A stretch of DNA of 64,000 bases from an uncultured Gemmatimonadaceae bacterium (GCA_963781585.1 CAWAGQ010000004.1:672001-736000); one strand, 5' to 3'. Positions 3,346-63,991 are shown, numbered from the stretch's first letter. The notes: generated from the letters alone by a model not told the origin. Numbers and translations: made by a program.

Positions 3346-3678
3346 TCAGCCGGGCGGCGTGGTGCCGCCTTCGGCGCCGGGCTCGGGGGGCTTGTCCGCA
3401 CCCTCCTTCTGGCTTGCCGTGCGCAGGAGCTCCTCGAGCCGTTTCACCTCGGCGTCGCGTTCGGCCAGCGCGTTCACCAGGCGCGTCAGGGATTCCCAGT
3501 CGGGGTCCTGCCCGGCCTGGCGTGCACGGAATACCGCGTAGCCTAACGATTCCGCGGACTTGTCCGCGAGCTGACGGGCCCGGAAGGCCTCCAGGCGGAG
3601 CTTGCCCTCATCGAGTGCGCCCTGCGCCGCCTTGCCGGCGCGGTCGAGTTCCGTTCTGAGCTTGTCCCACAGTGCCAT
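3346..3678 (-). CDS. Hypothetical helical/coiled-coil protein
   Basis: 110 aa with host-like codon usage and a GGGGG SD-like element upstream. Confidence 0.75.
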   Translation of the reverse strand: MALWDKLRTELDRAGKAAQGALDEGKLRLEAFRARQLADKSAESLGYAVFRARQAGQDPDWESLTRLVNALAERDAEVKRLEELLRTASQKEGADKPPEPGAEGGTTPPG

Positions 3679-3823
3679 GTGACCCCCGATGCAGGACGGC
3701 GCGCCACCAGACGCCGCGCCGGATGTGTCCGGTGCCCGATGGCCGACGAGGCCTGGCCCTCGAGCAATGGCCGCAGCCAGCCATACGCGACGGCGGCGCT
3801 GAAAGTTGCATCGGTGGGCGGCG

Positions 3824-3854
3824 AAAAAAAATCCCCGGCCGTGCAGGACCGGGG
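3824..3854 (-). terminator. Rho-independent terminator after rpmA
   Basis: CCCCGGTC-ctgcac-GGCCGGGG hairpin followed by A and T8 on the minus strand. Confidence 0.85.
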
Positions 3855-3875
3855 CGGGGTCGCGTCCGTCAGCCG

Positions 3876-4154
3876 TTAGGCAGCCGTTTCATCGGCTCCC
3901 GGACGCGGGTAGACGCTGACACGGTAGCGGCGCTTGCTCTTGTGCTCGAACCGCACCACGCCGTCGATGAGCGAGTAGATGGTGTAGTCGGTGCCCAATC
4001 CCACGTTGGTTCCGGGATGCCACTTCGTCCCGGTCTGCCGGAGGATGATGTTTCCGGCGCGGACGTACTCCCCGCCATACTTCTTCACCCCCCGGTATTT
4101 CGGGTTGCTGTCGCGGCCGTTGCGAGACGAGCCGACGCCCTTCTTGTGTGCCAT
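3876..4154 (-). CDS. rpmA: 50S ribosomal protein L27
   Basis: [16 protein letters not shown] signature. Confidence 0.99.
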
Positions 4155-6628: not shown

Positions 6629-7180
6629 CTACGGTCCGACCTTCTTCCGAAAGACGAGCCAGGCCATGGCCAAGGCAAACCCCAGCGCGGCCTTCCACTC
6701 GCCGTGCTTCAGATACAGGTCAAAGCTAAACGGTGCGGCGTTTTCCCGGCGAGAGCCCGTCCAGGGGGTGACCCGCGGAACAAACGCCGGCACGTTGGCC
6801 TCGTACTCGGCGTAGGCATCGGGAAAGCGCGAGCGGATGTTGGCCCGCTCGCGCTCCATCGTGGGGGCGTAGACCAGCACGAAGAACGAGATCACCAGCA
6901 GGAGCAGCGACCAGTGCGCCGCCACCGCGAAGCCGGCGGCGATGAGGAAGCTCCCGAAGTACAGCGGGTTCCGGGTATGGGCGTACGGGCCGGAGGTGGC
7001 CAGCCGTTCGTTCTTCGCGATGTGTCCCGAGGCCCAGGCCCGCACGCCGAGGCCGACCAGGGCCACGGTGCCGCCGAACATCAGGGCGCCCGGCGTGGGG
7101 TGCACGAACGCGAGGTACAGCAGGGAGAGCGTGAACCCGAGCGGGAGGCGCAGCCGCTTCGCGACCAGCGAGTACGTCAC
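6629..7180 (-). CDS. ICMT/PEMT-family membrane methyltransferase
   Basis: [15 protein letters not shown] motif and several TM segments. Confidence 0.85.
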
Positions 7181-8394
7181 ACCGGGAGGTTTCCGAGCAG
7201 GTCGCGGGCGATCACGAGGCGTTGAATCTCGCTCGTGCCTTCCCCGATCTCGCAGACCTTGGCATCGCGCATCATGCGCTCGACGGGAAAGTCCCTGGTG
7301 TAGCCGTAGCCTCCGTGGAGCTGGACGGCCTTAATCGTCGCCCGCATGGCCAGTTCCGAGCAGAACAGCTTGGCCATCGCGGCGGCGGTCGTGTACGGCT
7401 TGCCGTGCTGCGCCAGCCAGGCCGCGTGGTAGACGAGGTGCTTCCCGGCCTCGATCTCGGTCGCCAGGTCACTGAGCTGGAACTGGACGCCCTGGAACAG
7501 GGCCACCGGTTGCCCGAACTGGCGGCGGCCCGAGGTGTACCGGACCGCCTGGTCGAACGCCCCCTCGGCGATGCCTAACGAGAGAGCGCCGATCCCGATG
7601 CGTCCGGAATCGAGCGTGCGCATGAAATTGACGAATCCCTCTCCCTCATTTCCGAGGCGGTTCTCCACCGGCACTTCGACATCCTCGAGGATGAGCTCCC
7701 GGGTATCTGATGCGCGCCATCCGAGCTTGTCTTCCTTCCGGCCGGAGCGAAACCCCGGCATGGCCGCGATGGTCGGGTCGTGGCCGATGCCGTGCGGGCG
7801 GGCACGCTCCCGATCGTCGTTGTGCTTGGTGAGGATGAACGAGGTGATGCCGCGCGCCTTCCTGGCGGGGTCGGTGAGCGCGGTCACCACGAAGATCTCG
7901 CCCACGCCGCCGTGCGTGATGAAGCGCTTGGATCCGTTCAGGATGTATCGATCACCCTTCCGCCGAGCGACCGTGCGGGTGCCCCCGGCGTCGCTGCCCG
8001 CACCCTCTTCGGTGAGTCCAAAGCCGCCCATCACCCGACCCGACGCCAGCGGCGCCACGAAGCGCAATCGCTGGGCATCGGTTCCGAAATGCACGATTGG
8101 CGACGTGCCCAGCGTGGTGTGCGCGGAAATCGTGAGCGCATGAGACGCGTCGACCTTGGCCAGTTCGTGAATGGCGATGATGTAGCTGAACAGGTCGAGG
8201 CCGGCGCCGCCGAGTGATTCGGGCCACGGGATGCCCAGCAGCCCGAGTTCCGACATGCGCCGGATGTTCTCCCAAGGAAACTCGGCTGATTCGTCGTACT
8301 GCGCGGCAACCGGCGCGACCACGTCGGTCGCAAACGCGCGCACCATCTCGCGCACCGCCAGATGCTGCTCGGTGAAATACAGCCTGTCGTCCAT
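7177..8394 (-). CDS. Acyl-CoA dehydrogenase
   Basis: [44 protein letters not shown]. Confidence 0.96.
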
Positions 8395-8510: not shown

Positions 8511-10187
8511 TCAGTCGTCGCAGTTATCGCACCGTGAGCACGTAGCCCGCGCCGACTCGTCGCCGAAATATCGAAGGATGTATTCGCGGCGGCAACCGCG
8601 AGTTGCAGCGTAACCAACCATCGCGTCGAGCTTTGCACGTTCCCCGGCTCGCCGGTGCTCCAGGCGATGGAGCGCTGCGGCCAGGTGGAGCTCTGCGCGA
8701 CGGCCCGTGTCGAGGGTGCCGTGGCGGACGTGGCGGCGCACGTAGACCAGCTGCCGGCCCTCGAGCTCCTGGAGTGCGCGCTGAAGCACAAACGGACGCG
8801 CCACGAGCGGCGGCTGATCGACGGCGATCCAGTCGTCACCGCCGGTGTCGCACGCGAAGCGCAGAACGCGGCGCGCCGATTCGGAAAGCGCGGCCTCTTC
8901 GCAGACTGCCCGGAGGGGCGAGGCCAGCAGACGGATCTGGACCGGGTCGGCGCGGTCGGCCACGTGCAGGAGGCCATTCTGTTGCAGGAAGTCGGCGGCG
9001 CGTTTGAGAGAGTCCGGCGCGAGACGCTGTCGCGAGCCGGCGGCCAGCCGCGAGGGGTCGAGGCGCACCGGCGCCGATTCGCGGGCCAGCAGGTCGTAGG
9101 TGCGCCTAACGACGGACGGTTCGGGATACGACACGTCGCGAAAGCGATCGTGCACCCGCCGATCGCGGGGATGGAAGAGGAGGATGCAGCGCGCCGCCGC
9201 CCCGTCACGACCGGCGCGGCCGGCCTCCTGATAGTAGTCCTCCAGCGAGCCCGACATCGCGAAATGGAGCACCAGTCGTACGTCGGCCTTGTCGATGCCC
9301 ATGCCGAAAGCGTTGGTTGCGGCAATGATCGGCACCCGGCCGCTCATGAATGACTCCTGCGCGCGTGCGCGACGGTCCGGCGAGAGCCCGGCGTGGTATC
9401 CCACGGCCGCGATGCGCTGCTTCGCGAGCAGTCGGACCACATGCTCTACCTGTCGCCGTGTGGCGGCGTACACCACCACTGCCCCGGACGGATTGGCGAC
9501 CAGTCCGGCCATCGCCTCCACGCGCGCGGCTTCGTTCGCGACGGCGGCGACGCCAAGGCGGAGGTTTGGTCGGTCGAAGCCGCTGACGATTTCGACCGGC
9601 GCCCGCAGCCCCAGCAACTCGCGAATGTCTCGCCGAACCGCCGGCGTGGCGGTTGCGGTCAGGGCGACCGTCTGGGGCATTCCGAGCGTCCGCCTGACGT
9701 CGCGGATGCGGAGATAGCTCGGTCGGAAATCGTGGCCCCATTCGCTCACACAATGCGCTTCGTCGACAGCCAGGAGCGACGGCCGGAGCACGCGAAGCAG
9801 GTCGATCGTGGACGCGATGACGAGTCGCTCCGGGGCGACGTACAGCAGTTTGATCTCACCCCGCCGCAGCCGGGCAAGTCGGCGCGCCGCCTCGTCAGGC
9901 GGCACGGTGCTGTTGATGACTTCCGCCGCCACGCCGCGCTTCTGGAGGGCCTGCACCTGGTCCGCCATCAGCGAGATGAGGGGGGAGACGACCACAGTCA
10001 GACCGGGCAGCAGGAGCGCCGGAATCTGAAAGCAGAGGGACTTCCCGCCGCCGGTCGGGAGCACGATCAGCGCATCCGCGCGCCGAAGCACGGCCTGCAC
10101 GGCACCGATCTGCGGCGCGCGAAAGTCGTCGTAGCCGAAGGTGGCGCGGAGTGCGCTGCGTGCATCGTCGAGCGTGAGCGGGGGCAC
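8511..10187 (-). CDS. recQ: RecQ-family ATP-dependent DNA helicase
   Basis: [38 protein letters not shown]-terminal CRR...CSRCDNC Zn site. Confidence 0.95.
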
Positions 10188-11815: not shown

Positions 11816-13429
11816 GTGGGCAGACTGCCGCGTCGCTCCGTTCTTGCTGCCGTCATCGCGTGCGCCGCACCTTCGGCGCTCTCCGCTCAGGTCATTCAGA
11901 TTCAAGGGACAGCCTCGTCCCTGGAGTCGGGGGTCGGCGCCGCTCTGAAGGTGTGGGGCGACGGTTACGACGGCGGTGCGGGCATCGGGTACCTGCGTGG
12001 GCTTCGCACGAGTCTCTGGGTGCGACGCGCGATCGGGCGCGACACGCTCCGGCTGGGCGACGATGTCATTCCCCTGCGCCTCGCGTCCGATGTATTCGGC
12101 TCGAGTCCGGTGATTCTCGCGCAGGGGGCAGGGTTGCGCGCGCGCCGCGGCCGCACGGCCTTCAGCGTGTTCGCCGGCGCGAGTGCACGCGCCCTGCCCT
12201 CTCCGCTCTTCACATCGACAGAACGCGAATCACCGCTGGGCTACCTGCACGGCGAGAGCGCGATCTCTCCGAGGATTTTGCTGGCGGGAGACGCGGTGGT
12301 GGCACACCGACAGACGCTGCTACTGAGCTCTTCGTGGCAGCCGGTGTCGGACATGACGGCAAGCGCCTCCGCCGGCGTGGGTGGCAACGCGCCGTATGCC
12401 GCGTCCGCGTTCCGGGTTCACCGGGAGCGCTTCGACGTCACAACGGCGTACGTGTATCACGGAGACGCCTATCGGCGCGCCGATGCGCCCCTCAGCGTCC
12501 ACGCCGAAGTCGAAGGGGCGAATGCATCCGCGACCTGGCGCCCCTTGCCTTCGTTCGCCATCAACGCCGGCCGACAGCACTTCCGGCAGGACAGCGTGGT
12601 GGCCGGCATGTCGCCCAATGCCACATCCACTCAGGCGTCACTCTCCTGGGCCTCAACCGCATTGGCCGCGTCGCTGGGTGGCTTCGAGTCGCAGTCGGAT
12701 TCCGTGCGCAATTTCAGTTCGTTCGCGTACCTGCGGCGCGACCTGACTTCGTGGTTTCGGGGGGATCTCTATCTGCTCTCGATCTGGGAGCCGCATCGGA
12801 TCCGCAGCACGACCCCGGTCCTGTACCTGCGCGAAAGCCTCTCGCCACGCGCGGAGTTCGTTCAGGTCGTGACGCGCAGCGACCGTGGCACGACGGTCAA
12901 TTTCGGCGGGGCCCTGCGGGGCGGACTCAGCGAAGTGAGCGTCGACTATCAGGTCGTGCACTCCCCGCTCCGCGTCAACGACCCCTTCCAGACGTCCATG
13001 GGGCTGACGGTGAGGCTGCAGCTTGGCGCCCTGCAACTTTCCCTCGGGAGCTTCGTGGCGCCCGACGGCCGCACGTACTTCTCGGCGTCGGGCGGGAGCT
13101 TTCTCTATCGCGCGGCGTCATCGATGGGGCGAGCCGAGGGGCTGCTGTTCCAGTTCGACCGATTCCTCGTGCGGGGACGCGTGGTCGACGAGGAGGGCAA
13201 CCCGGTCGAGGGTGCCGCCATTCGACTGGGAGACGAGACCGTCTACACGAACCGCCGCGGTGAATTCTTTCTCCGACGCCCCTCGGCGCAGGCGCTGCCG
13301 CTCACGGTGCTGCCAACGGACTTTCTGCTGCCGGGAACCTACGAGACCGTCAGCGCGCCCGAACAGGCGACACCGGCACGAGAGGGACACGAGCAGCCGG
13401 TCACCATCGTGGTCCGCAAGCGCGCCTAA
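11816..13429 (+). CDS. Outer-membrane beta-barrel-like protein with C-terminal carboxypeptidase-regulatory-like domain; putative usher
   Basis: Signal peptide, many amphipathic beta strands, C-terminal VRGRVVDEEGNPVEGAAI...TNRRGEF. Confidence 0.55.
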   Translation: MGRLPRRSVLAAVIACAAPSALSAQVIQIQGTASSLESGVGAALKVWGDGYDGGAGIGYLRGLRTSLWVRRAIGRDTLRLGDDVIPLRLASDVFGSSPVILAQGAGLRARRGRTAFSVFAGASARALPSPLFTSTERESPLGYLHGESAISPRILLAGDAVVAHRQTLLLSSSWQPVSDMTASASAGVGGNAPYAASAFRVHRERFDVTTAYVYHGDAYRRADAPLSVHAEVEGANASATWRPLPSFAINAGRQHFRQDSVVAGMSPNATSTQASLSWASTALAASLGGFESQSDSVRNFSSFAYLRRDLTSWFRGDLYLLSIWEPHRIRSTTPVLYLRESLSPRAEFVQVVTRSDRGTTVNFGGALRGGLSEVSVDYQVVHSPLRVNDPFQTSMGLTVRLQLGALQLSLGSFVAPDGRTYFSASGGSFLYRAASSMGRAEGLLFQFDRFLVRGRVVDEEGNPVEGAAIRLGDETVYTNRRGEFFLRRPSAQALPLTVLPTDFLLPGTYETVSAPEQATPAREGHEQPVTIVVRKRA

Positions 13430-13956
13430 CGTGCCTCCCCGACCGGACCGATGAGGTGCAGCACATCCTCGCGATCGGCGACCAACCGACCATTCACATC
13501 GAACAGTTCGTACCGCAGGCAGGCCGCCCCGGTCGCCTGTCCGGGTTCCGCGATCACGCGATATCGGACCACGCGCTCCGCGGTCGCTGACAGCATGACG
13601 GGGCTGGCCCCGGCCGCCTCGGGAACGATGACCAGACGGCCCGCGCTGTCGCGAACGAACAGGCGCGTCACGTTGTCGCCGCGGCTGCACTGGCCCTTCG
13701 TCAGGCCGAGGACATCGCCAGTCCTAACGACAAACGGTATCGGCGCGGTGACGTCCAGAACCTGCGGGCCCACCCGGCGGACGGTCTCACCGGTGGGGAG
13801 TCGTGGTTCGGGGGCGCTGATGGGCGCGGTGGCAGGCGGCCGCTTGACGACGATCAGGGTTACTTGCGCGACCCTGCTCCGGGTTGCCTGCGCCCTGGTG
13901 CTGACGGGGGTCAGCAACAGGCAGGCGACCAGGGTAACGGGGAGCGTCCGCTGCAT
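13426..13956 (-). CDS. Secreted hypothetical protein convergent on the pilus-like operon
   Basis: Signal peptide MQRTLPVTLVACLLLTPVSTRA; beta-rich; two Cys in the mature part. Confidence 0.6.
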   Translation of the reverse strand: MQRTLPVTLVACLLLTPVSTRAQATRSRVAQVTLIVVKRPPATAPISAPEPRLPTGETVRRVGPQVLDVTAPIPFVVRTGDVLGLTKGQCSRGDNVTRLFVRDSAGRLVIVPEAAGASPVMLSATAERVVRYRVIAEPGQATGAACLRYELFDVNGRLVADREDVLHLIGPVGEAR

Positions 13957-14186: not shown

Positions 14187-16736
14187 TCACACCGCGCGTG
14201 CGAAATGGCCCCGGGTGAAGGTCGTCCCAACAATGGCACGCGGCGCGTCCAGCGCCGGCCGCGCGGCTTGTGCCAGCGAATCGAGCGCGGCGGCGTATGC
14301 GCGCACCAGCCCGGCGACCGGATCACCATGGACGTTGAAGACGGCCCGGTACGCCCGTATCCCCGCGCTCCAGAGCCGCGGCAGGTATTCCGATGCCTCG
14401 ATGGGACGGGAATGCAGCAGGCGATTGCGGCAATGCGCATCGGTCGCCACGGGAAACGTGTATCCGGCGGGATCGGTGAGCGCCACGATGGGGTGCTTGT
14501 GTACGCACAGGTCCCGGCAAGTGGTGGGTTTGCGGTCGAATGCTGCCGAGAGCACGCAATGCTCCAGTGTCATCCCCTCGGGGCGACCGTAGATCAGCAC
14601 TTCGAAACGCTGTCCGCGCCACGGCGCGACCATTTCGGCCAGCTCATCCGCGGTGAGTTCGACGGACGCGGTGACACGAGTGGCGCCGCGGATCAGGATC
14701 TCGGCGGCGGTGTGCTGGTTGAAGCAATTGGCCGCGTAATCCACGACCACGTCGCGGCCAAGCGCGGCGAGCTCGGACGCCAGGCCGAGGTGTCCGGACA
14801 GGATTGGCAGATCGAGGGCCAGCCACTTCTCGAGCGAGCGATTCTCTTCCGGCCGGAGAATTGTCGGTGTCCGCAGTCGCAGCGCGATCCCGCGCGCGGC
14901 GAGCTCCCCGGCCAGCGAGCGCACGTGCGATGCCGACGGCGTCGGATGGCGAAGGAACGGATCGAACACGATTTCCGTGGCCCCGGCTCCGGCAGCCTGG
15001 TGGGCGTCGTCGTCGCAGAACACCTCGGCAACCAGCGCATAGCGCGGCGGTGGCAACGAGCTCCCGTTTCCGGCGTTTCCCCGGTCCGCGCTGGCTGTCC
15101 GTGGTGGCGCGATATCGGGCGCGCTGGCCTTTGGAGGAATCGCGACAATCGCGGTGTCGATAGCGCGCTGCCGCTCCGCGAGCCGCACCTGCTCCAGGTC
15201 ACGACGGCGTCGCAGTAGTTCGTCAACCGCCCGGCGTCGCATCTCATTCAGCTCTCGAACCGGGAGGAAGACACCGGAGGAGAGGCCCGCGCGATCGAGC
15301 GCCCCTAACGCGAAAGGCGTGTCGCCCAGGCGCGCCCAGTGCTCGCGCAGTCGCGGTTCGTCGAGCTCGTGCGCCCGAGCGATCGACAGCTGGCCTTCGC
15401 TTTCCACGGTGACGTCGAGTCCCACGCACGAAAACAGGGCGGTCAGGTGCGAACCGGCCCGACCGAAGGCGCGAACCTGGAGCGCGATCCGATCGGGTCC
15501 CGTGTCGGCGGAGAGCCCGCTGGTGCTGGCCCGGGCGCGGTCGATCAGCGCCGCGTCGGCGCTTCGCACCACGCGCCACCCAATGGGCACCGGTATTGGT
15601 GACCGGATCGCCTGGCGGACTGCTCCGGTGCGAGGCCCCAGCGCCCGCACGTCGCGCACACGAAACCCGCTGCTCGGCCCCGACGCGCCGGGGGGAGGCT
15701 CGAACCCGAGTCCGTCTCCCACGCGAACCGGTTCGGCTACCTCGATCGTGATCTCTCCCTTGCGGCTTCCGACGACGACGCCGAGTTCACGGCCGCGATT
15801 GTCCGGTTGGGTTCGGGTCACGTACGTGCGGCCGGCGCGGCCGTGCAGCATGCCGGCGGTGAACCCGCGGCTGTAGATCTGGACGAGCGGCGTCACGGCC
15901 TCCGGGGAAGGAATCGTGTCGTCGCCGCGGGCCAGCCGATCCAGGAACTGCCGATAACTCCTGGTCGCCACAGCGACGTACTCGGGCTTCTTCTTGCGCC
16001 CCTCGATCTTCAGGCAACCCACGCCCAGGTCGGCGAGCTGCGACAGCTCGTCATGCGCAGCCAGATCCCGGGCGGAGATCAGGTATCCGCGATCGAGCTC
16101 GTCGCCGGTGGCGCTATCGCGCAGGACGTAATCCTTGCGGCACGCCTGGGCGCACGATCCGCGGTTGGCGCTGCGGTCCGAGATCATCCCCGACATGAGG
16201 CACTGCCCGGAGTACGAAATGCAGAGCGCTCCGTGCACGAACGTCTCGAGGCCGAGCTCCGGCACCGCGTCACGGATCGCGCGCAGATCGTCCAGCGTAT
16301 TCTCGCGTGCCATGACCACCCTTTGCACACCGAGCTCACGCAACAGTCTCGCGCCGCGCTCGTCGTGAACCGTGAGTTGCGTGGAACCGTGGAGCTCGAA
16401 TCCCGGAAAGACCTGGTGGATGAGCCGGATCAGCCCGATGTCCTGGACGATCGCGGCATGGATGCCTTGATCGATCGCACGTCCCAGGAGATCGAGCGCC
16501 GGCGCGAGCTCGGCGGGCTTGACGAGCGTGTTGAGGGTGAGGTAGAGGCGCACGCCGTGGGCGCGGGCGAGTGCGCCCGCCTGCCCGAGTTCCTCGACCG
16601 TAAGCTGGGCGCCCTCGTCGCGGGCGTTGAAGCGCTCGACGCCGAGGTACACGGCGTCGGCGCCATTGGCCACGGCTGCCCGCACAGCCTCGAGCGAGCC
16701 GGCCGGTGCAAGAAGCTCCGGGATGCGTCGCGTCAT
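14187..16736 (-). CDS. U32 family protein with long C-terminal region (RlhA-like Fe-S RNA hydroxylase)
   Basis: PELLAPAG, GADAVY, HGALCISYSGQC...NRGSCAQACR, LKIEGR. Confidence 0.9.
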   Translation of the reverse strand: MTRRIPELLAPAGSLEAVRAAVANGADAVYLGVERFNARDEGAQLTVEELGQAGALARAHGVRLYLTLNTLVKPAELAPALDLLGRAIDQGIHAAIVQDIGLIRLIHQVFPGFELHGSTQLTVHDERGARLLRELGVQRVVMARENTLDDLRAIRDAVPELGLETFVHGALCISYSGQCLMSGMISDRSANRGSCAQACRKDYVLRDSATGDELDRGYLISARDLAAHDELSQLADLGVGCLKIEGRKKKPEYVAVATRSYRQFLDRLARGDDTIPSPEAVTPLVQIYSRGFTAGMLHGRAGRTYVTRTQPDNRGRELGVVVGSRKGEITIEVAEPVRVGDGLGFEPPPGASGPSSGFRVRDVRALGPRTGAVRQAIRSPIPVPIGWRVVRSADAALIDRARASTSGLSADTGPDRIALQVRAFGRAGSHLTALFSCVGLDVTVESEGQLSIARAHELDEPRLREHWARLGDTPFALGALDRAGLSSGVFLPVRELNEMRRRAVDELLRRRRDLEQVRLAERQRAIDTAIVAIPPKASAPDIAPPRTASADRGNAGNGSSLPPPRYALVAEVFCDDDAHQAAGAGATEIVFDPFLRHPTPSASHVRSLAGELAARGIALRLRTPTILRPEENRSLEKWLALDLPILSGHLGLASELAALGRDVVVDYAANCFNQHTAAEILIRGATRVTASVELTADELAEMVAPWRGQRFEVLIYGRPEGMTLEHCVLSAAFDRKPTTCRDLCVHKHPIVALTDPAGYTFPVATDAHCRNRLLHSRPIEASEYLPRLWSAGIRAYRAVFNVHGDPVAGLVRAYAAALDSLAQAARPALDAPRAIVGTTFTRGHFARAV

Positions 16737-17422: not shown

Positions 17423-18784
17423 TCACGTGACGAGCTCCACGCGCGTCTCGACGGCTGTCTTGTCGATGAGCGCGGGCCAGTATGCCACGATCTCCTCCAC
17501 CTTGGGCCGACCGCCGGCGAAGCCGGTGACGGTGGGGGGGCCGTTGAGCACCAGCGGGGCGATTTCCCGGGTGAATCGCGCCACCGGCGCCTGATCCGCG
17601 GAGCGCACGCCGACACGCAGCTGGACCTCGGGGAAATCGCACGGCTCGTGGACCAGCGGACCGTGCGTGGCGTTGGCGCCCACGAACTCGGTCACGATCG
17701 CATCGAACCGCAAGCCCAGCCTGGCGAGACGCTCGCGGAGCACACGATCGGCACGCTGGGCCTTGGCGAGAGCCTGGGGCCAGGCATAGACGAGGGTCCC
17801 CACCGCCTTGAAGCCCGCGCGATAGGCGATCGAGACCTTGAGCCTGTCGGTCGGCGGCTTCCCGACGATGTCCGAGACGTGCACGCGGTCAGGGCCGGCC
17901 TGGGTGAGCCGGATGCTGGTGAAGTCGGCGACGACGTCCGGCGTGATATAGGAGCGCGGGTCGCCCATCTCGTAGACGAGTTGCTCGGTAACCGACGGAA
18001 CGGAAATGCGGCCCCCGGTGCCGGGATGCTTGGTGATGTCGAAGGAGCCGTCGGGGTGCGCCTCGACGATCGGATATCCGACATTGGCGAGGTCAGGGAT
18101 CGTTTCCCAGTCGTGGAGGCAGTTCCCTCCCGAGCACTGGGCGCCGCATTCGATGATGTGTCCGGCGATGATGCCGGCGGCGAGCCGGTTCCAGTCACCG
18201 GCCTGCCAGCCGAACTCGAAGCGAAGGGGCGCCATGGTGAGGGCGGTGTCGGTGGACCGTCCCGTGACGACCACATTGGCCCCCATGCCTAACGCCTCGA
18301 CGATCGGTCCGGAACCGAGGTAGGCGTTGGCGGCGAGGACGCGGTCACGGACGCGGGAGAGGGGATCACCGGTGTCCATGTTCGAGAGGGCGTGGCCTTC
18401 CGCCAGCAGCGCGTCGAGCCGGGGCAGGAGATCGTCGCCGGTCACAACGCCCAGCCGGAGCTTTCCCCTGACGCGACGTGCGTCGGCGAGCGCAAGCAGG
18501 GCCTTTGCGCAGGCCCCCGGATTGACGCCGCCGGCGTTGGCGACCACCCTGACGCCCCGCTCGACCACGGCCGACAGGACGCTGTCGACCGCGTCGACGA
18601 AATCGCGGGCGAATCCGGCATCGGGGTCGCGTTCCTTCTGCTTCTGCAGAATGGACATCGTGACCTCGGCCAGATAGTCGAGCATGAGGTAGTCGATCGG
18701 GCCACCGGCGACCTGCCGTCGCGGCGCCTCGAGCCAGTCGCCCCAGAAACCCTGTCCGGCGGCCACGCGCACCGTGCTCTTCAT
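17423..18784 (-). CDS. Acyclic terpene utilization AtuA family protein (DUF1446)
   Basis: [51 protein letters not shown]. Confidence 0.92.
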
Positions 18785-20403
18785 CGCACCGCGTCCGGTT
18801 GCGGCGGGAGAACGAACGGTCCGATATGGGGCCCCGGATTGTGCAGGGCGGCGCGCAGCGCGCAGGCCAGAACCTGACGGGTATTCTCGGGATACACGAT
18901 CGCGTCCACAAATCCGCGCGCGGCCGCATAACGCGCATCGAGCTGATGCTCGTAGTCGGCCCGCAGCTCCTCCATCGCATCGACCACCGCGGGATCGGGA
19001 GACTGGTCGCGCTCGCGCGCCTCCTCGAGGGCACGGCCATGCACCGCCTGCACGGCCGCCTCCCCCTCCATCACGCCCATGCGGCCGGTGGGCCAGGTGA
19101 AGATGAAATCGGGGTCGAATCCCTGCCCGGCCATGGCGTAGTAGCCGGCGCCCGAGGCGTGATTGACGGTCAGGACGATCTTCGGCACGCGCGCGCACGA
19201 CATCGCTTCGACCCAGCGCGCGCCGGCCCGGATGATGCCCGCGTGCTCGGCCTCCGGTCCCACCATGAATCCCGAGACGTCCTGGACGAACAGGAGCGGA
19301 ATTCCCTCGCGGTCGCATCGGTCGATGAAGAACGCCACTTTTTCCGAACTCTCGGGGTAGACGATTCCGCCAAACCGTGGCTTCTCGCCCGGATGACCGC
19401 GCACGATGCCGCGCTGGTTGGCGATGACGCCGACCGCGATGCCGTCGATGCGGGCGTCGGCGCAGATCATTTCGCGCGCCAGGTTCTGCTGGAATTCGTC
19501 GAGCGCCCCGTCGTCGACCAGGGCGCGCAGCACCGCGTGCATGTCGTACGACATCCGGTGGTCGGAAGGGAGGAGGTCATAGAGCACGTCGCCGACGGCG
19601 GTGGATGCCGGGTCGCGTGCGGTGTCCCCGTGGCCGGCGCGAGGCTCGTACGGCAGCCGCGCAACGAGCTCCCGCAGTTTTTCCACGCAGGCCGCGTCAT
19701 CGTCCACGGCGTAGTGGGCGACGCCGCTGGTCTCGGTGTGGGTGACGGCGCCGCCCAGGGTTTCCGCATCGATGACCTGTCCGGTGGCTCCCTTCACGAG
19801 GTTGGGGCCCCCGAGTCCCATGAAGGACGTTCCCTTCACCATCACGATCTCGTCCGACAGCGCCGGCAGGTACGCCCCACCGGCCACGCACTGCCCCATG
19901 ACGGCGGCGATCTGCGGCACGCGCAGGAAGCGCCGCATGATGGAGTTGTAGTAGAACAGACGAGCGGCGCCGTACTGACCGGGGAAGACGCCGCCCTGGT
20001 AGGGGAGGTTCACGCCGGCCGAGTCCACCAGGTAGATGATCGGGATGCGGCAGCGCATCGCGATTTCCTGGGCGCGGAGCATCTTCCTGATCGTCTCCGG
20101 CCACCACGAGCCGGCCTTCACCGTGGCATCGTTGGCGACGATCACGACCTCGCGGCCTGCCACCACGCCGATGCCGGTCACCACGCCGGCGGACGGGGCC
20201 TGTCCGTCGTAGGCATCGCAGGCGACGAGCAGCCCGATCTCGAGGAAGGTGTCGGGGTCATCGACCAGGCGGGCGACACGTTCGCGAGCGGTCAGCTTGC
20301 CCTGGGCGTGCTGGCGGGCAATCCGATCCGGGCCGCCGCCCTGACGGATGCGCTCCTCCAGCGCTCGGACCTGGGCGCTGAGTTCGCGCAGACGGCTGGT
20401 CAC
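18781..20403 (-). CDS. Acyl-CoA carboxylase carboxyltransferase (beta) subunit
   Basis: [38 protein letters not shown]. Confidence 0.93.
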
Positions 20404-20813
20404 GCTTCCTGCGTCTGCCGGCTCGTGAACCACTGGCGGATGTACTCCACCAGCGCTGAGGTGGACGTGCCCGGACCGAACAGCTGTCCGATGCCCTGCG
20501 CCTGCAGCGCCTCCATGTCCTCGTGGGGGATGATCCCGCCGCCGGTGATCAGGACATCCTCCCGGCCGGCGTCGACCAGCAGCTGCCTAACGCGTGGAAA
20601 GAGGGTCATGTGCGCGCCGCTGAGAATCGAAAGCCCCACCACGTCCACGTCCTCCTGGATCGCGGCGTTGGCGATCATCTCGGGGGTCTGGTGGAGTCCC
20701 GTGTAGATGACCTCCATGCCGGCGTCGCGGAGCGCCGCGGCGACGACCTTGGCGCCGCGGTCGTGGCCGTCGAGACCGGGTTTGGCGATGAGCACGCGAA
20801 TGGGTCGGGACAT
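20400..20813 (-). CDS. Cobalamin-binding small subunit of an acyl-CoA mutase
   Basis: [10 protein letters not shown] (DxHxxG), SILSGAH, GGGIIP. Confidence 0.95.
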
Positions 20814-40327: not shown

Positions 40328-40335
40328 GCGCTTAC

Positions 40336-40983: not shown

Positions 40984-41806
40984 GCTGCCCCCGCCCGTGG
41001 CGGAGCACACCACAAAGGGCGCGCACCGCCTCCTCCCCGTCCGGTGCCCGCGACAGGCTCGATCCCACCAATACCGCGTCGGCTCCCAACGTCGCGGCCG
41101 CGAGCACCCCCGTCCGGCTGGTGATGCCGCTCTCGGCGACGGTCAGGCAGTGGCCCGGGACCAGAGGGACCAGTCGCTCGGGTACCCCATCGTCAATCTC
41201 GAGCGTTTCCAGGTTACGGCGGTTCACCCCGATTACCACAGCGCCCGCTTCGAGCGCCCATTCGAGTTCTGCCTCGTCACGGACCTCGAAGAGAGCCTCG
41301 ATGCCCGCCTCCGCGGCAGCGTCTGCGAGCCGGGCCGTCCTGACCGGGCCCAACGCCCGGACAATCAGGAGCAGCGCCGATGCCCCCAGCGCGCGCGCTT
41401 CCCACACCTGGGCCGCCTCGACATGGAAGTCCTTCTTGAGCACCGGCAACCGTGTCGCTCCGAGAACGGCGCGCAGGTCGTCGGTTGATCCCAGGAATTC
41501 GCTGGGCTCCGTTAGAACGGAAATGGCGGAAGCTCCTCCGGAGGTGTAGGCCAGCGCGCGCTGCCCCGGGTCCAGCGTCTCATCGAGGGGCCCCTTGGAC
41601 GGGGCCCGTCGCTTGATCTCCGCAATCACGTGCAGGGCGGTTCCCTGACGCAGGGCATCCGCCAGGGATGTTGGAGGCGCGTGAGAGAGTGCCTCCCGTC
41701 GCAACGAGGGGAGATGCGATGAGAGCGACGCGGCTCGGAGCGCCGCGCGCTCACAGAGGCGGCCCAGGACGCCGCTCGGAGGGATCCAGTGGGTCTGCGC
41801 TTGCAC
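40976..41806 (-). CDS. trpC: Indole-3-glycerol phosphate synthase
   Basis: IAEIKRRAPSKG, SVLTE, KDF, GVNRRNL, ESGI, LVGS. Confidence 0.96.
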   Translation of the reverse strand: MQAQTHWIPPSGVLGRLCERAALRAASLSSHLPSLRREALSHAPPTSLADALRQGTALHVIAEIKRRAPSKGPLDETLDPGQRALAYTSGGASAISVLTEPSEFLGSTDDLRAVLGATRLPVLKKDFHVEAAQVWEARALGASALLLIVRALGPVRTARLADAAAEAGIEALFEVRDEAELEWALEAGAVVIGVNRRNLETLEIDDGVPERLVPLVPGHCLTVAESGITSRTGVLAAATLGADAVLVGSSLSRAPDGEEAVRALCGVLRHGRGQRA

Positions 41807-52961: not shown

Positions 52962-53267
52962 ATGGATAACGAAAAGCCCAGCCGAAACGAGGACGAATAC
53001 TTCGCCCGCAAGGACGCCGACCTCATTCAGGAGCAACGGGCGCGGCTCGACGCGGAGCGACGTCGCGCCGAGCGCGCGTCCCACTACATGCACTGCCCGA
53101 AGTGTGGCTCGAAGCTGATCGAAACCGAGTTCCACAACATCAAGATCGACAAGTGCCCCGAGTGTTCCGGGGTGTGGTTCGACGGCGGTGAGATCGAGCT
53201 GCTGGAGCACATCGACCAGAGCAGCATCCGCTCGTTGATGCGGTCCACGTTCGGGCTCCGGTGGTGA
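52962..53267 (+). CDS. zf-TFIIB-type zinc-ribbon protein
   Basis: EDEYF, CPKCG...[16 protein letters not shown]. Confidence 0.88.
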
Positions 53268-55573
53268 GCGGAGCGGTCCCCCGCCCCGGTGACCCGGCCA
53301 TCACGCCCGCCCTGGTCAGCGAGCACGGGCTCACCGCGGACGAGTACCAGCGGCTGGTGGCGATGTTGGGCCGCACGCCGACGTTCACCGAGCTCGGGAT
53401 CGTCAGCGCATTGTGGAGTGAACATTGCTCGTACAAGCATTCGCGACCGGTGCTGCGCACGCTTCCCACCTCCGCACCGTACGTGTTGCAGGGGCCGGGC
53501 GAGAACGCCGGCGTGATCTCGGTGGGCGACGGACTCGCCGTGGCCTTCAAGATCGAGTCGCACAACCATCCGTCCGCGGTCGAACCGTATCAGGGCGCGG
53601 CCACCGGTGTTGGAGGCATCCTGCGCGACGTGTTCACCATGGGGGCGCGCCCGATCGCATTGCTCAATTCGCTGCGGTTCGGGAGCCTGGAGCATCCTCG
53701 CACGCGCTGGCTCTTTGCCGGCGTGGTGAAAGGCATCGGCGACTACGGCAACTGTGTGGGGGTGCCGACGGTGGCCGGCGAGGTGGTGTTCGACGATGCC
53801 TACGCGGCCAACCCCCTGGTGAACGCCATGTGCGTCGGCGTGTTGCGTGAGGAGGAGTTGATAACGGCGCGTGCCGAGGGTGTCGGGAACCCGATCATCG
53901 CGGTTGGCGCGCGCACCGGCCGCGACGGGATCCACGGAGCGTCGTTCGCATCGGAGGACCTGTCGCACGAGAGCGACGCGAAGCGCCCGCGGGTGCAGGT
54001 GGGCGATCCGTTCACCGAGAAGCTGCTTCTCGAGGCGTCGCTCGAACTGATCCGGTCGGGACATATCGTGGCCATCCAGGACATGGGCGCCGCCGGTCTC
54101 ACGAGTTCGTCGGCCGAGATGGCGGCGCGTGGCGACGTCGGCGTGACGATCGATGTGCGCCGCGTTCCGCTCCGCGAGGAGGGCATGACACCGTACGAAA
54201 TCCTGCTCAGCGAATCGCAGGAACGGATGCTCGTGGTGGCGCGCCGCGGACACGAGCGCGACGTAAAGGGCATTCTCGAGAAGTGGGACCTCAACGCGTC
54301 GGTGATCGGCGAGGTGATCGCCGAGCCGGTGTACCGGGTGACCGAGGGAGACCGCATCGTCGCGGAATTCCCGGGGTCGCGTCTGGTGACGGACTGTCCG
54401 GTCTACACACCTGAGGCCCGCGAAAGCGAGGAGGTGCGCCGCCTGCGCGAGCGCGAGGTGGATTCCATCGCCGAGCTGGCGGAGGAGAGCGATCCCTTCT
54501 GGACCCTCGAGCGGCTGCTCGGCTCGCCGACGATCGCCGACAAGACGTGGGTGGTGCGGCAATACGACAGCACGGTGCGGGCGAGCACGGTGGTGGGCCC
54601 GGGGTCGGCGGATGCCGCCGTGGTGCGGTTGCGTGGGACCGGCAAGGCGATCGCCATGAAGACGGACTGCAACGGTCGCTACGTCTATCTCGACCCGCGT
54701 GTGGGCGGGCGCATTGCCGTGGTGGAGGCGGCGCGCAACGTTGCGTGTACGGGGGCGCGCCCGATGGCGATCACCAACTGCCTGAATTTCGGCAATCCGC
54801 GGCGTCCCGAGGTCTTCTTCCAGTTCCGGGAGGCGGTGGCGGGCATGGCTGAAGCCTGTGAGGCGTTAGGCACCCCGGTCACGGGCGGCAACGTCTCGTT
54901 CTACAACGAGAGTCCCGGGCGCGCGGTGTACCCGACCCCCACGATCGGCATGGTGGGGCTGATCGACGATCTCGCTCACGTGACACGCGCGGGATTCTCG
55001 TCCCCGGGCGACGCGATCATCCTGCTCGGCGAGAACAGCGGCGAGATCGGTGGCAGTGAGTACCTGCGCTGGATCCACGACGTGGTGGGGGGGTATGCGC
55101 CGCGGTGCGATTTGCAGGGCGAGCGCAAGCTGATCGACGTTCTCCTTTCCGCGATCCGGGGCGGGCATGTGGCCTCGGCGCACGATTGCAGCGAGGGCGG
55201 CCTCGCGGTGGCACTTGCTGAGTGCTGCCTCCTGAGCTCCCCGGAACCCCTCGGGGCCTCGATCGACCTGAGCGCGTGGGAGGCCCTGCCGCGACGGGCG
55301 CTGTTGTTCGGGGAGGCGCAGGGGCGCGTCGTGGTCTCCACCGACGCGGCCGATGCGGTGGTCGAAGTCGCCCGGCTGGGTGGGGTGCCCGCGCGTGTTA
55401 TCGGCCGCGTGGGCGATGCCAACGGGTTATTCTCCGTAAGAACAGGTTCGAGAGAATGGCGGATGCCGGTCGCGAGGCTGGGCGATGCCTATTTCGATGC
55501 GATTCCCTCGATCATGACACGGATCGCCACGGCGAGTGACGAGACGGAGCGGACCTTGACGGCGGACGTTTGA
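53264..55573 (+). CDS. purL: FGAM synthase subunit PurL
   Basis: [35 protein letters not shown]. Confidence 0.98.
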
Positions 55574-57049: not shown

Positions 57050-59710
<2,661 letters not shown>

Positions 59711-59790: not shown

Positions 59791-60579
59791 GTGAGTCGCA
59801 CTGCCACTGGATTGCCGGCCGCGCCGGCGCCGGTTTCACCCGGCTCGAGTGGGACCCAGGCTGATCGGTTGTTTGCCGCCACGGCGCAGGGACCGGACGA
59901 TTTCCGCTTCGATACGAACACGGCCGCGGTCTTCGACGACATGGTCAACCGGTCGGTGCCGTTCTACGGAGAGATTCAGCGGATGATCGCGGAACTGGCG
60001 GCGGATTTCGCGGTGCCCGGCACGAACCTCTACGATCTCGGCTGCGCCACGGCCACCACATTTGCCGCCCTGGAGGGCGTGGTGGATCCCGGGGTGCGGT
60101 TCATCGGGATGGATAGCTCGGACGAGATGCTCTCCCGGGCGCGGCAGAAGCTGGACCTGGTGCCGAGCGCGCGGGAGCGGCGGCTGGTGGTACAGGACCT
60201 GAACGACCGGTTCCGGATCGAGAATGCCTCGGTCGTGATCATGATGCTGACCCTGCAGTTCGTGCGGCCGCTGCAACGTGAGCGGGTGGTTGGCGAGATC
60301 GCGCGCGGGCTCCATCCCGGGGGGTGTCTGATCCTCGTGGAGAAACTCACCGAGAGCGATTCGCTCTTCAACCGGCTGTTCATCAAGTACTACTACGAGA
60401 TGAAGCGCCGGCACGGATACTCGGAGCTGGAGATCGCCAAGAAGCGCGAGGCGCTGGAGAACGTGCTCATTCCCTATCACTACGAGGAGAATTCCACGCT
60501 CCTGCTGTCGAACGGGTTCAGCACCCTTCAGACGTGGTTCCGCTGGTACAACTTCTGTGGCATGATCGCGGTCAAGTGA
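59791..60579 (+). CDS. cmoA: Carboxy-S-adenosyl-L-methionine synthase CmoA
   Basis: FRFD...[51 protein letters not shown] upstream of the GTG. Confidence 0.9.
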
Positions 60580-61340
60580 CGGCGTCCGCCAGCGTCACCA
60601 CAAGCGCGGGCCCGACGCCACTGGCCCGGCTCGGTGCGTTCTTCTTCCGGTACCGCGACGCGGTGTTCCCGGGGGTGTTCGGCGTGATGGTGCTGGCCAC
60701 CGATCCGCAGCGCCTGCTGGGCAGTGACCGTCTGGACGCGCTCGCGGATGGCGTGGGGATTCTCCTGTCGGCTCTCGGCCAGGCGCTGCGGATCGCCGTT
60801 GTGGGCTACGCCTACATCATTCGCGGCGGGCGCAAGCGCACGGTATACGCGGAGGATCTCGTGACCGGCGGATTGTTCGGGGTCTGCCGCAATCCCCTCT
60901 ATCTCGGGAACCTGCTCGTCATTCTGGGGCTGTTGCTGATCTGGAACAGCCCGTGGGCGTACGCGGTCTGCGTTCCGTTCTTCCTGCTCGGCTATCGCGC
61001 GATCGTCGCCGCGGAGGAAGGCTACCTGCGCGCCCAGTTCGGACCGGCGTACGACCAGTACTGCCGGGAGGTTCGGCGCTGGCTGCCGGCGTGGGGGCGC
61101 CTAGCGAGCTCCGTGCAGGGAATTGGGTTCCACTGGCACCGGGTCGTGCTGAAGGAGTACGGCACCATCGCGGCCTGGCTGGGCACGACGCTCGCGCTGA
61201 TCGTGCTCGAGACCATCTCGTTCTCGACCGTTGCCGTGCACCCGGTGCGCCTCGCCGTGTGCGTCCTGCTGATCGCAATTGTCGTCGCGCTCTGGGCCAT
61301 CACGCGATGGCTGAAGATCACCCACCGCCTGCATCGATGA
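60576..61340 (+). CDS. ICMT/PEMT-family integral membrane methyltransferase
   Basis: [27 protein letters not shown] motifs, about 6 TM segments; GTGA overlap with cmoA. Confidence 0.85.
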
Positions 61341-63170
61341 GGACGACCGGCGACTGCCGGCGGTCGCCGCCGGCAGCACAATCCGGAACGTAGCCCCCTC
61401 GCCAGGTCCACTCTCGGCCGTCAGTTCACCGTCGTTCGCCTGCACCAGGCTGCGCGAGACTGCGAGCCCGAGCCCGATGCCGTGCGATTTGGTCGTGAAC
61501 AGGGGTTCAAAGATCTTTTCGAGGTTCTCCTCTGCTATTCCCGGTCCGGTGTCGCGTACCTCGAGCCGCACCCGATCCGGCCCGGTCGCCCGTCCACGAA
61601 GCGTGAGGATCGCGCTGCCTCCGTCCACGGCCTGAAGGGCGTTGGTCAGGAGATTGAAGACCACCTGTCCCAGCTGAACAGGATCGGCCCACACCGCCGG
61701 CAGGTCATCCGGGAAGTCGCGCTCCAGGCGGACGCCATTCAGCGAACCGAGCCGCTCGAGTTGCGCATCCACCAGCTCGACCAGAGGGACAGCGACTCGA
61801 TCCGGCGTCCTGATGCGCGCTACATCCAGCAGATCTCCGATAATGCGCTCCGAGAGCGCGACCTGCCGGCGCATCACGCCCAGATATTCCCGCACGTCCT
61901 CCGACGGCTGCTCCAGCACCAGTCCGAGATACTCGATGGCGTTGCTCATCACGCCCAGGGGATTGCGGAGCTCGTGTCCGACCCCGCTGGCAAGTTGTCC
62001 CAGGAGGGTCAGCTTCTCCCTGCGCAGCAGCGCCTCCTGCGCATCCCGCAACTGGCGATTCGTCTGGTCGAGATCGCGCGTCCGTTCGGCAACTTTCTCC
62101 TCGAGCCGTTGCTGCGAATCGCGAATGCGGCCGGCCATGGCTTCGAAGGCCTTGGACAGCCGACCGATTTCATCGGCGCGATCGGTCGGTACCGCGCGCG
62201 AGTAGTCCCCTGCTGCCACCTGGTCGGCGGCGTCGGTGAGCACGCGCAGCGGATGCGTGATACGACGTCCCAGGAACCACTGGACGGCGAGACCGATCAC
62301 GACGAAGGCGACCGCGATCAGCAGGATCTGCCTCAGGAACTGGTCAGCCGGTTCGAGAATGTTGCTGAACGGGAATTCCAGCCGCATCAGCCACGGTCGG
62401 GACGGCATGGCGGTGGTAATCGCCATAGCTGGCTCGAGGGAATCCGTCGCGGCGTAGCGGACCACCGAGTCGAGGGACGGCTCCGGACGGTCGGGCGGAC
62501 CCGATCCAACCAGGACGGACCAGTTGGTCCCGTCGCGATTCCCGATCACAAGGCGGGCTTTTGATCCGATTAGTTGCTGGAACCGCTCGGCGCCGTTCCC
62601 GCCCGGCGACCTCGGCATACGACGCCACTGCACCACGGCTCCGCGCACCGGTTTCCGGAACGTCGCGCCGAAGGGAAAGACCACTGCTCCGTCGTACGAG
62701 CGGAATTCTCCAAAGACGATGGAATCCTCACCGGCACGCCGGAGCATCGACGCCACGCTGGAATCGGCCCAGCTGGGCATCGTGGCGTTCCCCGCCCCGA
62801 GGAGGAGAGTACCCCCCGAGCTGCGCAATTCCGTACGAATCGCGCTGGGCACCGCCTTGTGCGCGGCCTGCAAGGCGTCGAGCGCGCTCAATTCAGTGCG
62901 CGGATCAGGGGAGGCGAGAAAAGTGCGCACCTCCCCGCTGTCCACCAGGGCGCGCAGCTGCAACGCGTTCTGCCGTCCAAGGGCACTGGTCACGGCTGTC
63001 AGCTGCCCGGAAAGGACCTGGAGGCGGTCTGCGGCCGCGTCGATGGCGGTGCGCCGTACCTCGTAGTATGAGGCCAGGCTGAGCGCCGCGGCGAGCAGCA
63101 GGAGCAGCACCGCCGTGATCAGCGGGACCTTGTAGGCGATCGAGAGCCTGGCCAGGAACCCGCTCGGCAT
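61101..63170 (-). CDS. Membrane sensor histidine kinase (periplasmic domain, HAMP, HisKA, HATPase)
   Basis: HELRNPL, NLLTNALQA, DTGPGI, FEPLFTTK, GIGLGL; HAMP DEIGRL; start uncertain. Confidence 0.93.
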   Translation of the reverse strand: MPSGFLARLSIAYKVPLITAVLLLLLAAALSLASYYEVRRTAIDAAADRLQVLSGQLTAVTSALGRQNALQLRALVDSGEVRTFLASPDPRTELSALDALQAAHKAVPSAIRTELRSSGGTLLLGAGNATMPSWADSSVASMLRRAGEDSIVFGEFRSYDGAVVFPFGATFRKPVRGAVVQWRRMPRSPGGNGAERFQQLIGSKARLVIGNRDGTNWSVLVGSGPPDRPEPSLDSVVRYAATDSLEPAMAITTAMPSRPWLMRLEFPFSNILEPADQFLRQILLIAVAFVVIGLAVQWFLGRRITHPLRVLTDAADQVAAGDYSRAVPTDRADEIGRLSKAFEAMAGRIRDSQQRLEEKVAERTRDLDQTNRQLRDAQEALLRREKLTLLGQLASGVGHELRNPLGVMSNAIEYLGLVLEQPSEDVREYLGVMRRQVALSERIIGDLLDVARIRTPDRVAVPLVELVDAQLERLGSLNGVRLERDFPDDLPAVWADPVQLGQVVFNLLTNALQAVDGGSAILTLRGRATGPDRVRLEVRDTGPGIAEENLEKIFEPLFTTKSHGIGLGLAVSRSLVQANDGELTAESGPGEGATFRIVLPAATAGSRRSSSSMQAVGDLQPSRDGPERDDNCDQQDAHGEAHRVHGNGRERDGLEHDQRERRAQPGRDGAVLLQHDPVPVEPNSLHGAR

Positions 63171-63991
63171 GTGGCGAGGAGCACCCGGCAAGCCGGCGCC
63201 AGGACTAGCCGACATCAGTTCGGGGTTGATTGCTGCCAGAACGTATCGGGGGCGATTGCAGGGCGGATGTGACGCGTCGCACGTCTTCACTTCCGGTGCT
63301 CGGCTTGCCGAAGGTCGCCATTGCAGGACTCGTCGCCTGGCCCGTGCTCGTGCGCCTGGGGACCGTCCGTACCCCGGCTCGCCCACCGGGTGCCAGTGCT
63401 GCACTACGCCCAGTGCCCGCCCGACCCCAAGATCGCATCACTCGCTCCGACTCGAAGGAAGGCATGTTGCCATCCGACTTGCAGGGACAGCGCCACCTAA
63501 CGAACCGCCGGGACGCGACCCTTCTCCGCGTGCGCGGGAAGAGCATCGGGCGACACGGACCGCGTGTCCTCGAAGAGTGCGTTCTCCCTAAGGTAGACGC
63601 CGCCAGGCAATGTGCAACCCGCGCGGGCGGCCGTCGCAGCCGGTCCGGAGGTCCGCCCTTCGCGGAAGCGTCCGGGGACCACAAACCGGGCCCATCCAAC
63701 ATCCTGGGGGTGCCGCACGTTCACTGAGGGTGTTTCGTCACATCCCGTGGTATGGCGGGAATTGCACGTGTTGGGCGCGCGGACGCGGATCGCGCTGGCG
63801 CGCCCAGCCCAGCGTTCTGCTGTGTCCGTGCACGCGGGCGCGGAGCGGCTGGGTTCGGTAACATTTCGCCACCCAGGAGCACCACCTCACTTCAGACGTC
63901 CGCACGGCCACGAGCCGCGCCTTACCTCCCGCGAACGCTCAGGAGCGCCAAACGTACGTCGCAAGCCACACACTGTGTTCGGAGGCCCCTC

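Follow-up and report, generated by a model that had tools for sequence, protein, structure and literature searches.

Why should one short word recur every few kilobases in a stretch of bacterial DNA that otherwise looks ordinary? The question is raised by 64,000 nucleotides from an uncultured Gemmatimonadaceae bacterium (GCA_963781585.1 CAWAGQ010000004.1:672001-736000; this whole stretch is hereafter the window), in which an earlier note had pointed to an iterated 8-base word, CGTTAGGC (reverse complement GCCTAACG). We found all 15 exact 8-mers and all four core-only copies that it listed, at the same positions, with nine GCCTAACG on the plus strand and six on the minus strand, giving 19 copies of the 7-base core CCTAACG. 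Dinucleotide shuffles of the window (n=100) yielded 0.92 8-mers on average with a maximum of 5, and none reached 15; for the core they yielded 2.23. A third-order Markov model of the window predicted 0.41 8-mers, and when all window 8-mers are ranked by it, the top places for over-representation go to the word and to sub-words overlapping it. When synonymous codons were shuffled with the protein and the codon usage kept (n=300), 0.28 copies were expected and at most 3 were seen, against 12 wholly intragenic copies in the window. Protein sequence does not explain the word, as the note had maintained, and its count in window genes exceeds a codon-preserving null.

The window has a G+C content of 68% and carries one copy per 3.4-4.3 kb, spaced more evenly than random placement would give (coefficient of variation, CV, 0.55, p=0.004). 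Sixty genes were called by codon statistics, most of them named with Pfam, and they form an ordinary housekeeping region that includes rpmA, rplU, an RNase E/G family gene, RecQ, methylmalonyl-CoA mutase, trp genes, LexA, pur genes and pyruvate phosphate dikinase. Outside the eight bases the flanks carry at most 0.35 bit per position, both among 31 copies and among 778 copies on a plasmid described below, which rules out an extended or bipartite motif. A repeat of the repetitive extragenic palindromic (REP) or miniature inverted-repeat transposable element (MITE) type is also ruled out, since no conserved or palindromic unit of greater length surrounds the core. When the window was scanned with Rfam and for tandem repeats, one tRNA and three trivial arrays came up and nothing else.

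Relatives were taken as the 80 loci of a genome scan queried with the window's methylmalonyl-CoA mutase, the window's own genome not being among them. The closest were 82% identical to the mutase query and came from Gemmatimonadaceae metagenome-assembled genomes. The word occurs nine times in 21.7 kb of locus L002, six times in 8.2 kb of L008 and once in 4 kb of L003, and 47 other Gemmatimonadota loci lack it (0 copies in 733,273 bases), from which 0.04 copies per 64 kb would be expected. Three loci from outside the Gemmatimonadota (L054, L060 and L065) have one copy each, which is the chance level. In a single-gene tree of the mutase the window pairs with L003, L002 lies nearby, and the sister of L008 is L001, where 11.4 kb contain no copy. 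The distribution of the word is therefore narrow and patchy, covering a few Gemmatimonadaceae lineages. Among L001-L053, 44 further loci with a length of 8 kb or more were scanned, and none had an 8-mer of its own over-represented to a comparable degree. We observed a local word, ACAACAGAG/AGAGACAA, in L018 (Gemmatimonas sp.), with 8 copies in 21.6 kb where 0.1 would be expected, which probably reflects a repeat array that has nothing to do with CGTTAGGC.

The copies in L002 are evenly spaced as well, with a CV of 0.24 (p=0.0001) and gaps of 1.3-2.6 kb. They run from 3326 to 20160 in the orientation order + - - + - + - + -, those of one orientation standing about 4.3-5.3 kb apart and interleaved with those of the other. 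At Pro-Asn sites of L002, five of six bear the word.

Comparison of orthologous positions, a check that the earlier note had proposed, revealed that the word is laid over ordinary codons. Relatives have GCG-CTG or CTC where the window reads GCG-TTA, and GTG-CGG where it reads GTT-AGG. At the ybeY site (26112), most relatives read GTG-CTC-GGC (Val-Leu-Gly) against GCG-TTA-GGC in the window, a change that requires three substitutions, one of them nonsynonymous. At the AtuA-family site (18287) no relative out of 28 aligned carries the word, and Gly stands at that residue in just two of the 28, while at the site in the B12-binding subunit (20585) relatives mostly have GTG/GTC followed by CGG/CGC (Arg), CTC/CTG (Leu) or AAG/AAA (Lys). 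The U32 peptidase site (15304), a core-only copy in the window, is a full 8-mer in L002 and GCG-TTG-GGC in L013. The reverse comparison, from the copies of L002, L008 and L003 to other genomes, likewise met ordinary codons at orthologous positions. Writing a copy into place has thus taken as many as three substitutions, a number of which are nonsynonymous, and codon bias, at times also the residue itself, gives way to the word. Bearing genomes rarely share a position: one of five alignable window copies is common with L002, and of the 16 copies in L002, L008 and L003 three have a partner, making up two shared sites (window 15304 with L002, and L002 with L003). The positions of the word turn over between these genomes, which are rather distant (mutase identity 78-82%).

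The word is also found in a cultured, completely sequenced organism, the type strain KBS708 of Gemmatirosa kalamazoonensis; the bearers include the window's organism, the sources of L002, L003 and L008, and G. kalamazoonensis. Plasmid 1 of this strain (NZ_CP007129.1, complete, 1,106,233 bp; 974 own gene calls) holds 778 copies, or 0.70 per kb, 404 on the plus and 374 on the minus strand, with copies in every 25-kb bin; the first 50 kb of plasmid 2 hold 20. The copies on plasmid 1 fall into a sense [APST]-Leu-Gly class (309), an antisense x-Pro-Asn-x class written CCT-AAC (187), a sense Val-Arg class (24), an antisense [CGR]-Leu-Thr class (23), intergenic copies (147) and copies straddling gene ends (88). 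The word contains 309 of the 404 TTA and 187 of the 518 CCT codons of the plasmid, and 61 of its 116 TAA and 42 of its 195 TAG stops. Spacers carry 0.92-1.32 copies per kb and coding DNA 0.64, about a twofold difference, with no preference for convergent spacers on this plasmid. Spacing is again more even than random (CV 0.88 against 1.00±0.035, the lowest of 2000 random sets being 0.903), with too few gaps of 100-400 bp (82 against 138 expected) and too many of 400-2000 bp. The proteome has been affected as well, since the word has raised the frequency of Pro-Asn dipeptides in plasmid 1 proteins: PN[ADEGV] occurs 1.21 times per 1000 residues against 0.35 in non-bearing relatives, and [APST]LG 3.95 times against 2.90.

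The largest word-free gap on plasmid 1 (10,862 bp) holds ParA/ParB; a motif-free island there is ruled out, as random placement gives a mean largest gap of 10,300 bp. Other gaps hold SusC/SusD pairs, small hypothetical open reading frames and a BrnT toxin and have lower GC, which is only suggestive of foreign DNA without the word. Among pairs of copies at most 100 bp apart, 17 have the arrangement GCCTAACG...CGTTAGGC and two the inverted arrangement opposite to it, an excess that fits convergent genes both ending in GCC-TAA, like the pair at 13424 in the window. At about 30 of the 778 copies (for example near record position 794,989) the word ends a repeat of about 45 bp, ...GCTCCGTCAGCTGCAACGATTCGTTAGGC; 18 of these fall in no called gene, several of them in long spacers, and the repeat was not found in the window or the 80 related loci. 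Around 1,005,342-1,005,430 a 12-base tandem array, GCGTTAGGCGCG x6, carries consecutive copies of the word, and there are tandem arrays of the 10-base AGGACTGAAG, with GGACTGAA present 120 times against 6.5 expected.

The word accumulates wherever coding tolerates it, namely in [APST]-Leu-Gly, Val-Arg, Pro-Asn and Leu-Thr contexts, in TAA and TAG stops, and in spacers. In the window, 11 copies lie in the frame nCG-TTA-GGn (Leu-Gly) and three in GTT-AGG (Val-Arg), five stop codons fall inside the word, and one copy is outside gene calls; the frames given in the earlier note all hold on our independent gene calls. Its argument that the word draws on rare codons is borne out by codon usage. TTA, which makes up 15 of the 2033 Leu codons in the window, is the codon most closely tied to the word (11 of the 15 sit in CG-TTA-GG); AGG is not confined to it (3 of 55). 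All three TAA stops in the window lie in the word, as GCC-TAA-CG, and so do two of the 12 TAG stops, as CGT-TAG-G.

Near-matches of the word are enriched too. On plasmid 1 the one-off variants TGTTAGGC, CGTTGGGC and CGTCAGGC occur 77, 151 and 132 times, against 0, 57 and 75 in the non-bearing background, while positions 2, 3, 6 and 8 are strict, the commonest position-8 variant being CGTTAGGT (14). L008 is the densest locus: positions 1-8206 hold 18 YGTTRGGC in 8.2 kb, made up of eight CGTTGGGC (0.9 expected), six CGTTAGGC, three TGTTAGGC and one TGTTGGGC, a set that may represent a lineage dialect of the word. L012 and L013 have five CGTTGGGC each, of uncertain significance. In the window, the transition neighbour CGTCAGGC occurs 11 times (9692, 9893, 13699, 16986, 21122, 23508, 27399, 30336, 35667, 39232 and 39909), ten of them within the 9-mer GCCTGACGA, for which 0.83 would be expected from other Gemmatimonadota loci (p=2e-8); five of the CGTCAGGC copies read G-CCT-GAC-GA, Pro-Asp with the rare CCT codon. 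A variant that is tolerated is one possible reading of this, a second word another.

What process could write such a word? We tentatively favour the reading that, in some Gemmatimonadaceae, it is a double-stranded DNA word kept dense and evenly spread by a sequence-specific process, through a mechanism like that of the DNA uptake sequences (DUS) of Neisseriaceae and the uptake signal sequences (USS) of Pasteurellaceae. The DNA receptor of transformation, or another DNA-exchange pathway, would prefer fragments bearing the word, and an allele that gains a copy would undergo uptake and recombination with greater frequency than one lacking it. Such molecular drive, whether or not joined by selection for the tagging of self-DNA, would then fill the genome to about one copy per few kilobases, and a second copy nearby would add little gain, which would lead to even spacing. 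An uptake or self-recognition drive is favoured because the word shows the published hallmarks of uptake sequences, although the step from these hallmarks to preferential uptake is one that we infer. Like DUS and USS, the word is short and asymmetric, occurs at roughly 0.2-0.7 per kb on both strands equally, has no replication polarity and is spaced more evenly than random; it lies mostly inside genes in tolerant frames and is denser in spacers, its one-off variants are enriched, the proteome is shifted, and there are lineage-specific variants. Findlay and Redfield reportedly described the co-evolution of proteomes with uptake sequences in 2009, and Frye et al. are said to have described DUS dialects in 2013. 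To our knowledge, proof that DNA uptake is sequence-specific exists for only two families of proteobacteria. It is possible, if short of probable, that the word belongs to a system of DNA uptake or self-recognition sequences that evolved independently and would be the third of its kind, in a phylum from which no sequence-specific uptake has been reported. For the uptake sequences of Pasteurellaceae and Neisseriaceae, passages of Bakkali 2007 give significantly even spacing, no orientation bias, a location mostly inside open reading frames, a frequency in non-coding DNA above expectation and over-representation of mismatched forms, and state that one uptake sequence per fragment suffices for uptake (PMC1939737).

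The likeness is not complete. The word is found in another phylum, at 68-73% GC, and is built from the rarest codons of the genome. Several points also weigh against an uptake drive. The word is shorter than DUS or USS, with only eight specified bases and no flanking preference, its density in the window is below that of the classic uptake-sequence cases, and inverted pairs are few (17 and 2 within 100 bp among 778 copies). The patchy distribution on the single-gene tree, where L008 bears the word and its sister L001 does not, requires fast gain or loss of the reader. No gene for competence machinery or for a sequence-specific receptor was found among the Pfam-named genes of the window, and the literature searched yielded no paper on sequence-specific DNA uptake in Gemmatimonadota. 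Finally, every hallmark listed would fit an intracellular reader protein too.

Such a protein is the second reading in order, followed by repair linked to 5-methylcytosine (5mC) as the third. The word may be the binding site of a predicted intracellular protein acting in nucleoid organisation, repair or self-marking, with selection keeping about one site per 1.4-4 kb; we consider this unlikely, but still a serious contender. Even spacing in three genomes, strand symmetry and density in coding and non-coding DNA alike all suit it. In addition, HIP1 (GCGATCGC) of cyanobacteria, like the word, is an 8-base sequence many-fold over-represented in and between genes, with a debated function, and Xu et al. 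read its distribution in this way (PMC5861425). HIP1 sites are reported there to be conserved between genomes, whereas only two alignable sites are common to bearing genomes here. No candidate protein is known, and the enrichment of one-off variants agrees no less well with a graded drive than with site-specific selection. The comparison with HIP1 has further limits, as HIP1 is palindromic while CGTTAGGC is asymmetric and not its own reverse complement, and HIP1 is a methylase target while the word is not among the motifs detected in KBS708. HIP1 has itself been argued, in part of a 2026 paper, to act as an uptake sequence (PMC13756078). The earlier note had proposed a genome-wide DNA-level signal analogous to uptake sequences or to HIP1, and this is supported by the codon-preserving null, the absence from non-bearers, the written-in codons and the filling of a 1.1-Mb replicon.

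The third reading, which we regard as improbable, is that a C5-methyltransferase recognises the word and that repair of the very-short-patch type converts near-matches to it, so that the word accumulates as a by-product. The patchy distribution among lineages would suit a mobile methyltransferase. 5mC is poorly detected by sequencing with the single-molecule real-time (SMRT) method, for which reason the methylome of KBS708 leaves 5mC unsettled and is compatible with this reading. That methylome lists only RGATCY, ATGCAC and CCAGN7TCA, all N6-methyladenine (m6A) motifs and none of them inside the word, which is unmentioned (PMC3974934). A target of m6A or N4-methylcytosine methylation in KBS708 is thereby ruled out, and of the functions listed in the earlier note methylation is weakened, with its 5mC part remaining. 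Fully specified, asymmetric 8-bp methylase sites are, moreover, unusual. The expected footprint of such repair was not found on plasmid 1, where none of the neighbours one C-to-T change away from the word shows selective depletion; TGTTAGGC is instead enriched and CGTTAGGT is the commonest position-8 variant. Changes of up to three substitutions that include transversions, such as GTG-CTC to GCG-TTA, are poorly explained by single-mismatch repair. HIP1 offers a parallel in favour, being recognised by methylases according to part of one report (PMC13756078).

The word works in either orientation and without replication polarity, and this is what decides against a polar signal. Chi and the FtsK-orienting polar sequences (KOPS) are co-oriented with replication. 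A signal of this type, read by RecBCD/AddAB in the manner of Chi or by FtsK in the manner of KOPS, has the attraction that Chi and KOPS, with the SpoIIIE recognition sequences (SRS), are likewise asymmetric 8-mers at kilobase-scale spacing, and that in the window all 14 intragenic copies read CGTTAGG on the sense strand, turning near 45 kb with gene direction. Nevertheless, it is very improbable and was rejected. Plasmid 1 has a clear GC-skew origin, with the minimum (1,023 kb) at the ParA/ParB locus, and 408 of its copies are leading and 370 lagging (p=0.18), those between genes divide 78:69, and the sense to antisense ratio is equal in co-directional and head-on genes. L002, a single co-oriented gene block syntenic with window 11-32 kb, has four sense and five antisense copies, and L008 has three of each. 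The earlier note had separated the word from Chi and KOPS because both orientations occur, and on a complete replicon this proved correct. The sense bias of the window, which the earlier note had not remarked on, is largely a matter of coding constraint and not true polarity. On plasmid 1 the word occupies 23.9% of compatible Leu-Gly sites, 55.8% of Pro-Asn, 4.6% of Leu-Thr and 3.0% of Val-Arg sites, and the window offers only five Pro-Asn and 39 Leu-Thr antisense sites and has a lower overall density; scaled to the window, these rates predict 2.7 antisense copies and a probability of 0.067 of seeing none, not a significant departure, which is why we read the 14:0 bias as coding constraint, although it remains slightly odd.

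The idea of a translation-level or peptide-level signal, either bldA-type TTA regulation or a favoured Ala-Leu-Gly peptide, can point to the 11 of 15 TTA codons held by the word in the window and 309 of 404 on plasmid 1, but it is scarcely credible and was rejected, as the eight bases are also met in different frames, antisense to genes, within stop codons and between genes, 469 of the 778 plasmid 1 copies are not TTA codons, three of the 14 intragenic window copies lie in another frame, and the protein-preserving shuffle falls far short of the observed count. It is as DNA, and not through codons or peptides, that the word is read.

The copies of the window are distributed as follows, the strand being that on which GCCTAACG or the core CCTAACG reads. 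Leu-Gly copies on the plus strand, all in minus-strand genes, read TCG-TTA-GGC at 3541..3548 (Ser-Leu-Gly, on the sense strand of gene 3346..3678) and 7573..7580 (acyl-CoA dehydrogenase gene 7177..8394), GCG-TTA-GGC at 18287..18294 (AtuA-family gene 17423..18784), 26112..26119 (ybeY, 26016..26483), 34523..34530 (GAF/MCP-signal gene 33089..35164) and 36643..36650 (HD-domain gene 35935..37449), and GCG-TTA-GGG at the core 15304..15310 (U32 peptidase gene 14187..16736). Those on the minus strand, all in plus-strand genes, read GCG-TTA-GGC at 30923..30930 (RlmN-like gene 30310..31386, read in sense) and 54864..54871 (purL, 53261..55573), CCG-TTA-GGC at 47089..47096 (HtrA-like protease gene 46656..48041) and ACG-TTA-GGC at 59412..59419 (pyruvate phosphate dikinase gene 57050..59710). 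The RlmN-like gene stands among minus-strand genes, and its copy takes the orientation of the gene. Val-Arg is encoded by plus-strand copies in minus-strand genes at 9104..9111 (GTC-GTT-AGG-CGC, RecQ-like helicase gene 8511..10187), at 20585..20592 (CGC-GTT-AGG-CAG, B12-binding subunit gene 20400..20795) and at the core 13723..13729 (GTC-GTT-AGG-ACT, gene 13426..13956). Minus-strand copies at 3874..3881 and 43529..43536 supply the GCC-TAA stops of two minus-strand genes, rpmA (L27, 3876..4154) and a GAF-domain gene (43531..44841), and the plus-strand core at 40335..40341 supplies the CGT-TAG stop of trpF (40336..41013, minus). A single plus-strand copy at 13424..13431 forms both stops of a convergent pair, GCC-TAA of gene 11951..13429 (plus) and CGT-TAG of gene 13426..13956 (minus). 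The plus-strand core at 63496..63502 is the non-coding copy.

Gene direction in the window turns from mostly minus (0.8-44.8 kb) to plus (45.1-60.6 kb), the turn at about 44.8-45.1 kb being a divergent pair of the GAF gene and truA; it is not evidently an origin, because there is no clear turn in GC skew. A fragment of the phage-integrase family at 2-520 (plus) runs off the left edge of the window and adjoins a tRNA-Leu(CAA) gene at 608-691 (minus), which together are the usual signature of the boundary of an integrated element. A plasmid-collection protein search with the window's acyl-CoA dehydrogenase returned no Gemmatimonadota record among the matches listed.

The word does not seem to have been described before, and with it the hyper-abundant short genomic words gain a member in a new phylum. 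The earlier note had not recognised it as described, and we found no description in the literature searched, where the motif-string matches examined look like primers or oligonucleotides and the word together with Gemmatimonadota terms was not found among the matches listed. It is unmentioned in the G. kalamazoonensis genome paper (PMC3974934) and in a paper on Gemmatimonadota chromosome architecture.

In conclusion, a further hyper-abundant word would show whether genome tags generally result from DNA exchange or from nucleoid biology, and this one comes from a soil phylum that is abundant but has been little studied, and is carried by a strain that is in culture and has been sequenced in full. 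It explains the odd TTA, CCT and TAA usage of the genomes that bear it, and it offers an inexpensive marker by which such genomes can be binned and DNA that they acquired recently can be spotted. For Gemmatimonadaceae genetics, adding the word to donor DNA is worth trying. If uptake is not involved, the alternative would be a wholly novel intracellular reader of an 8-base genome word. If the word does represent a third uptake or self-recognition system, its strength would be such that in these bacteria it prevails over codon bias, gives rise to stop codons and alters the usage of dipeptides.

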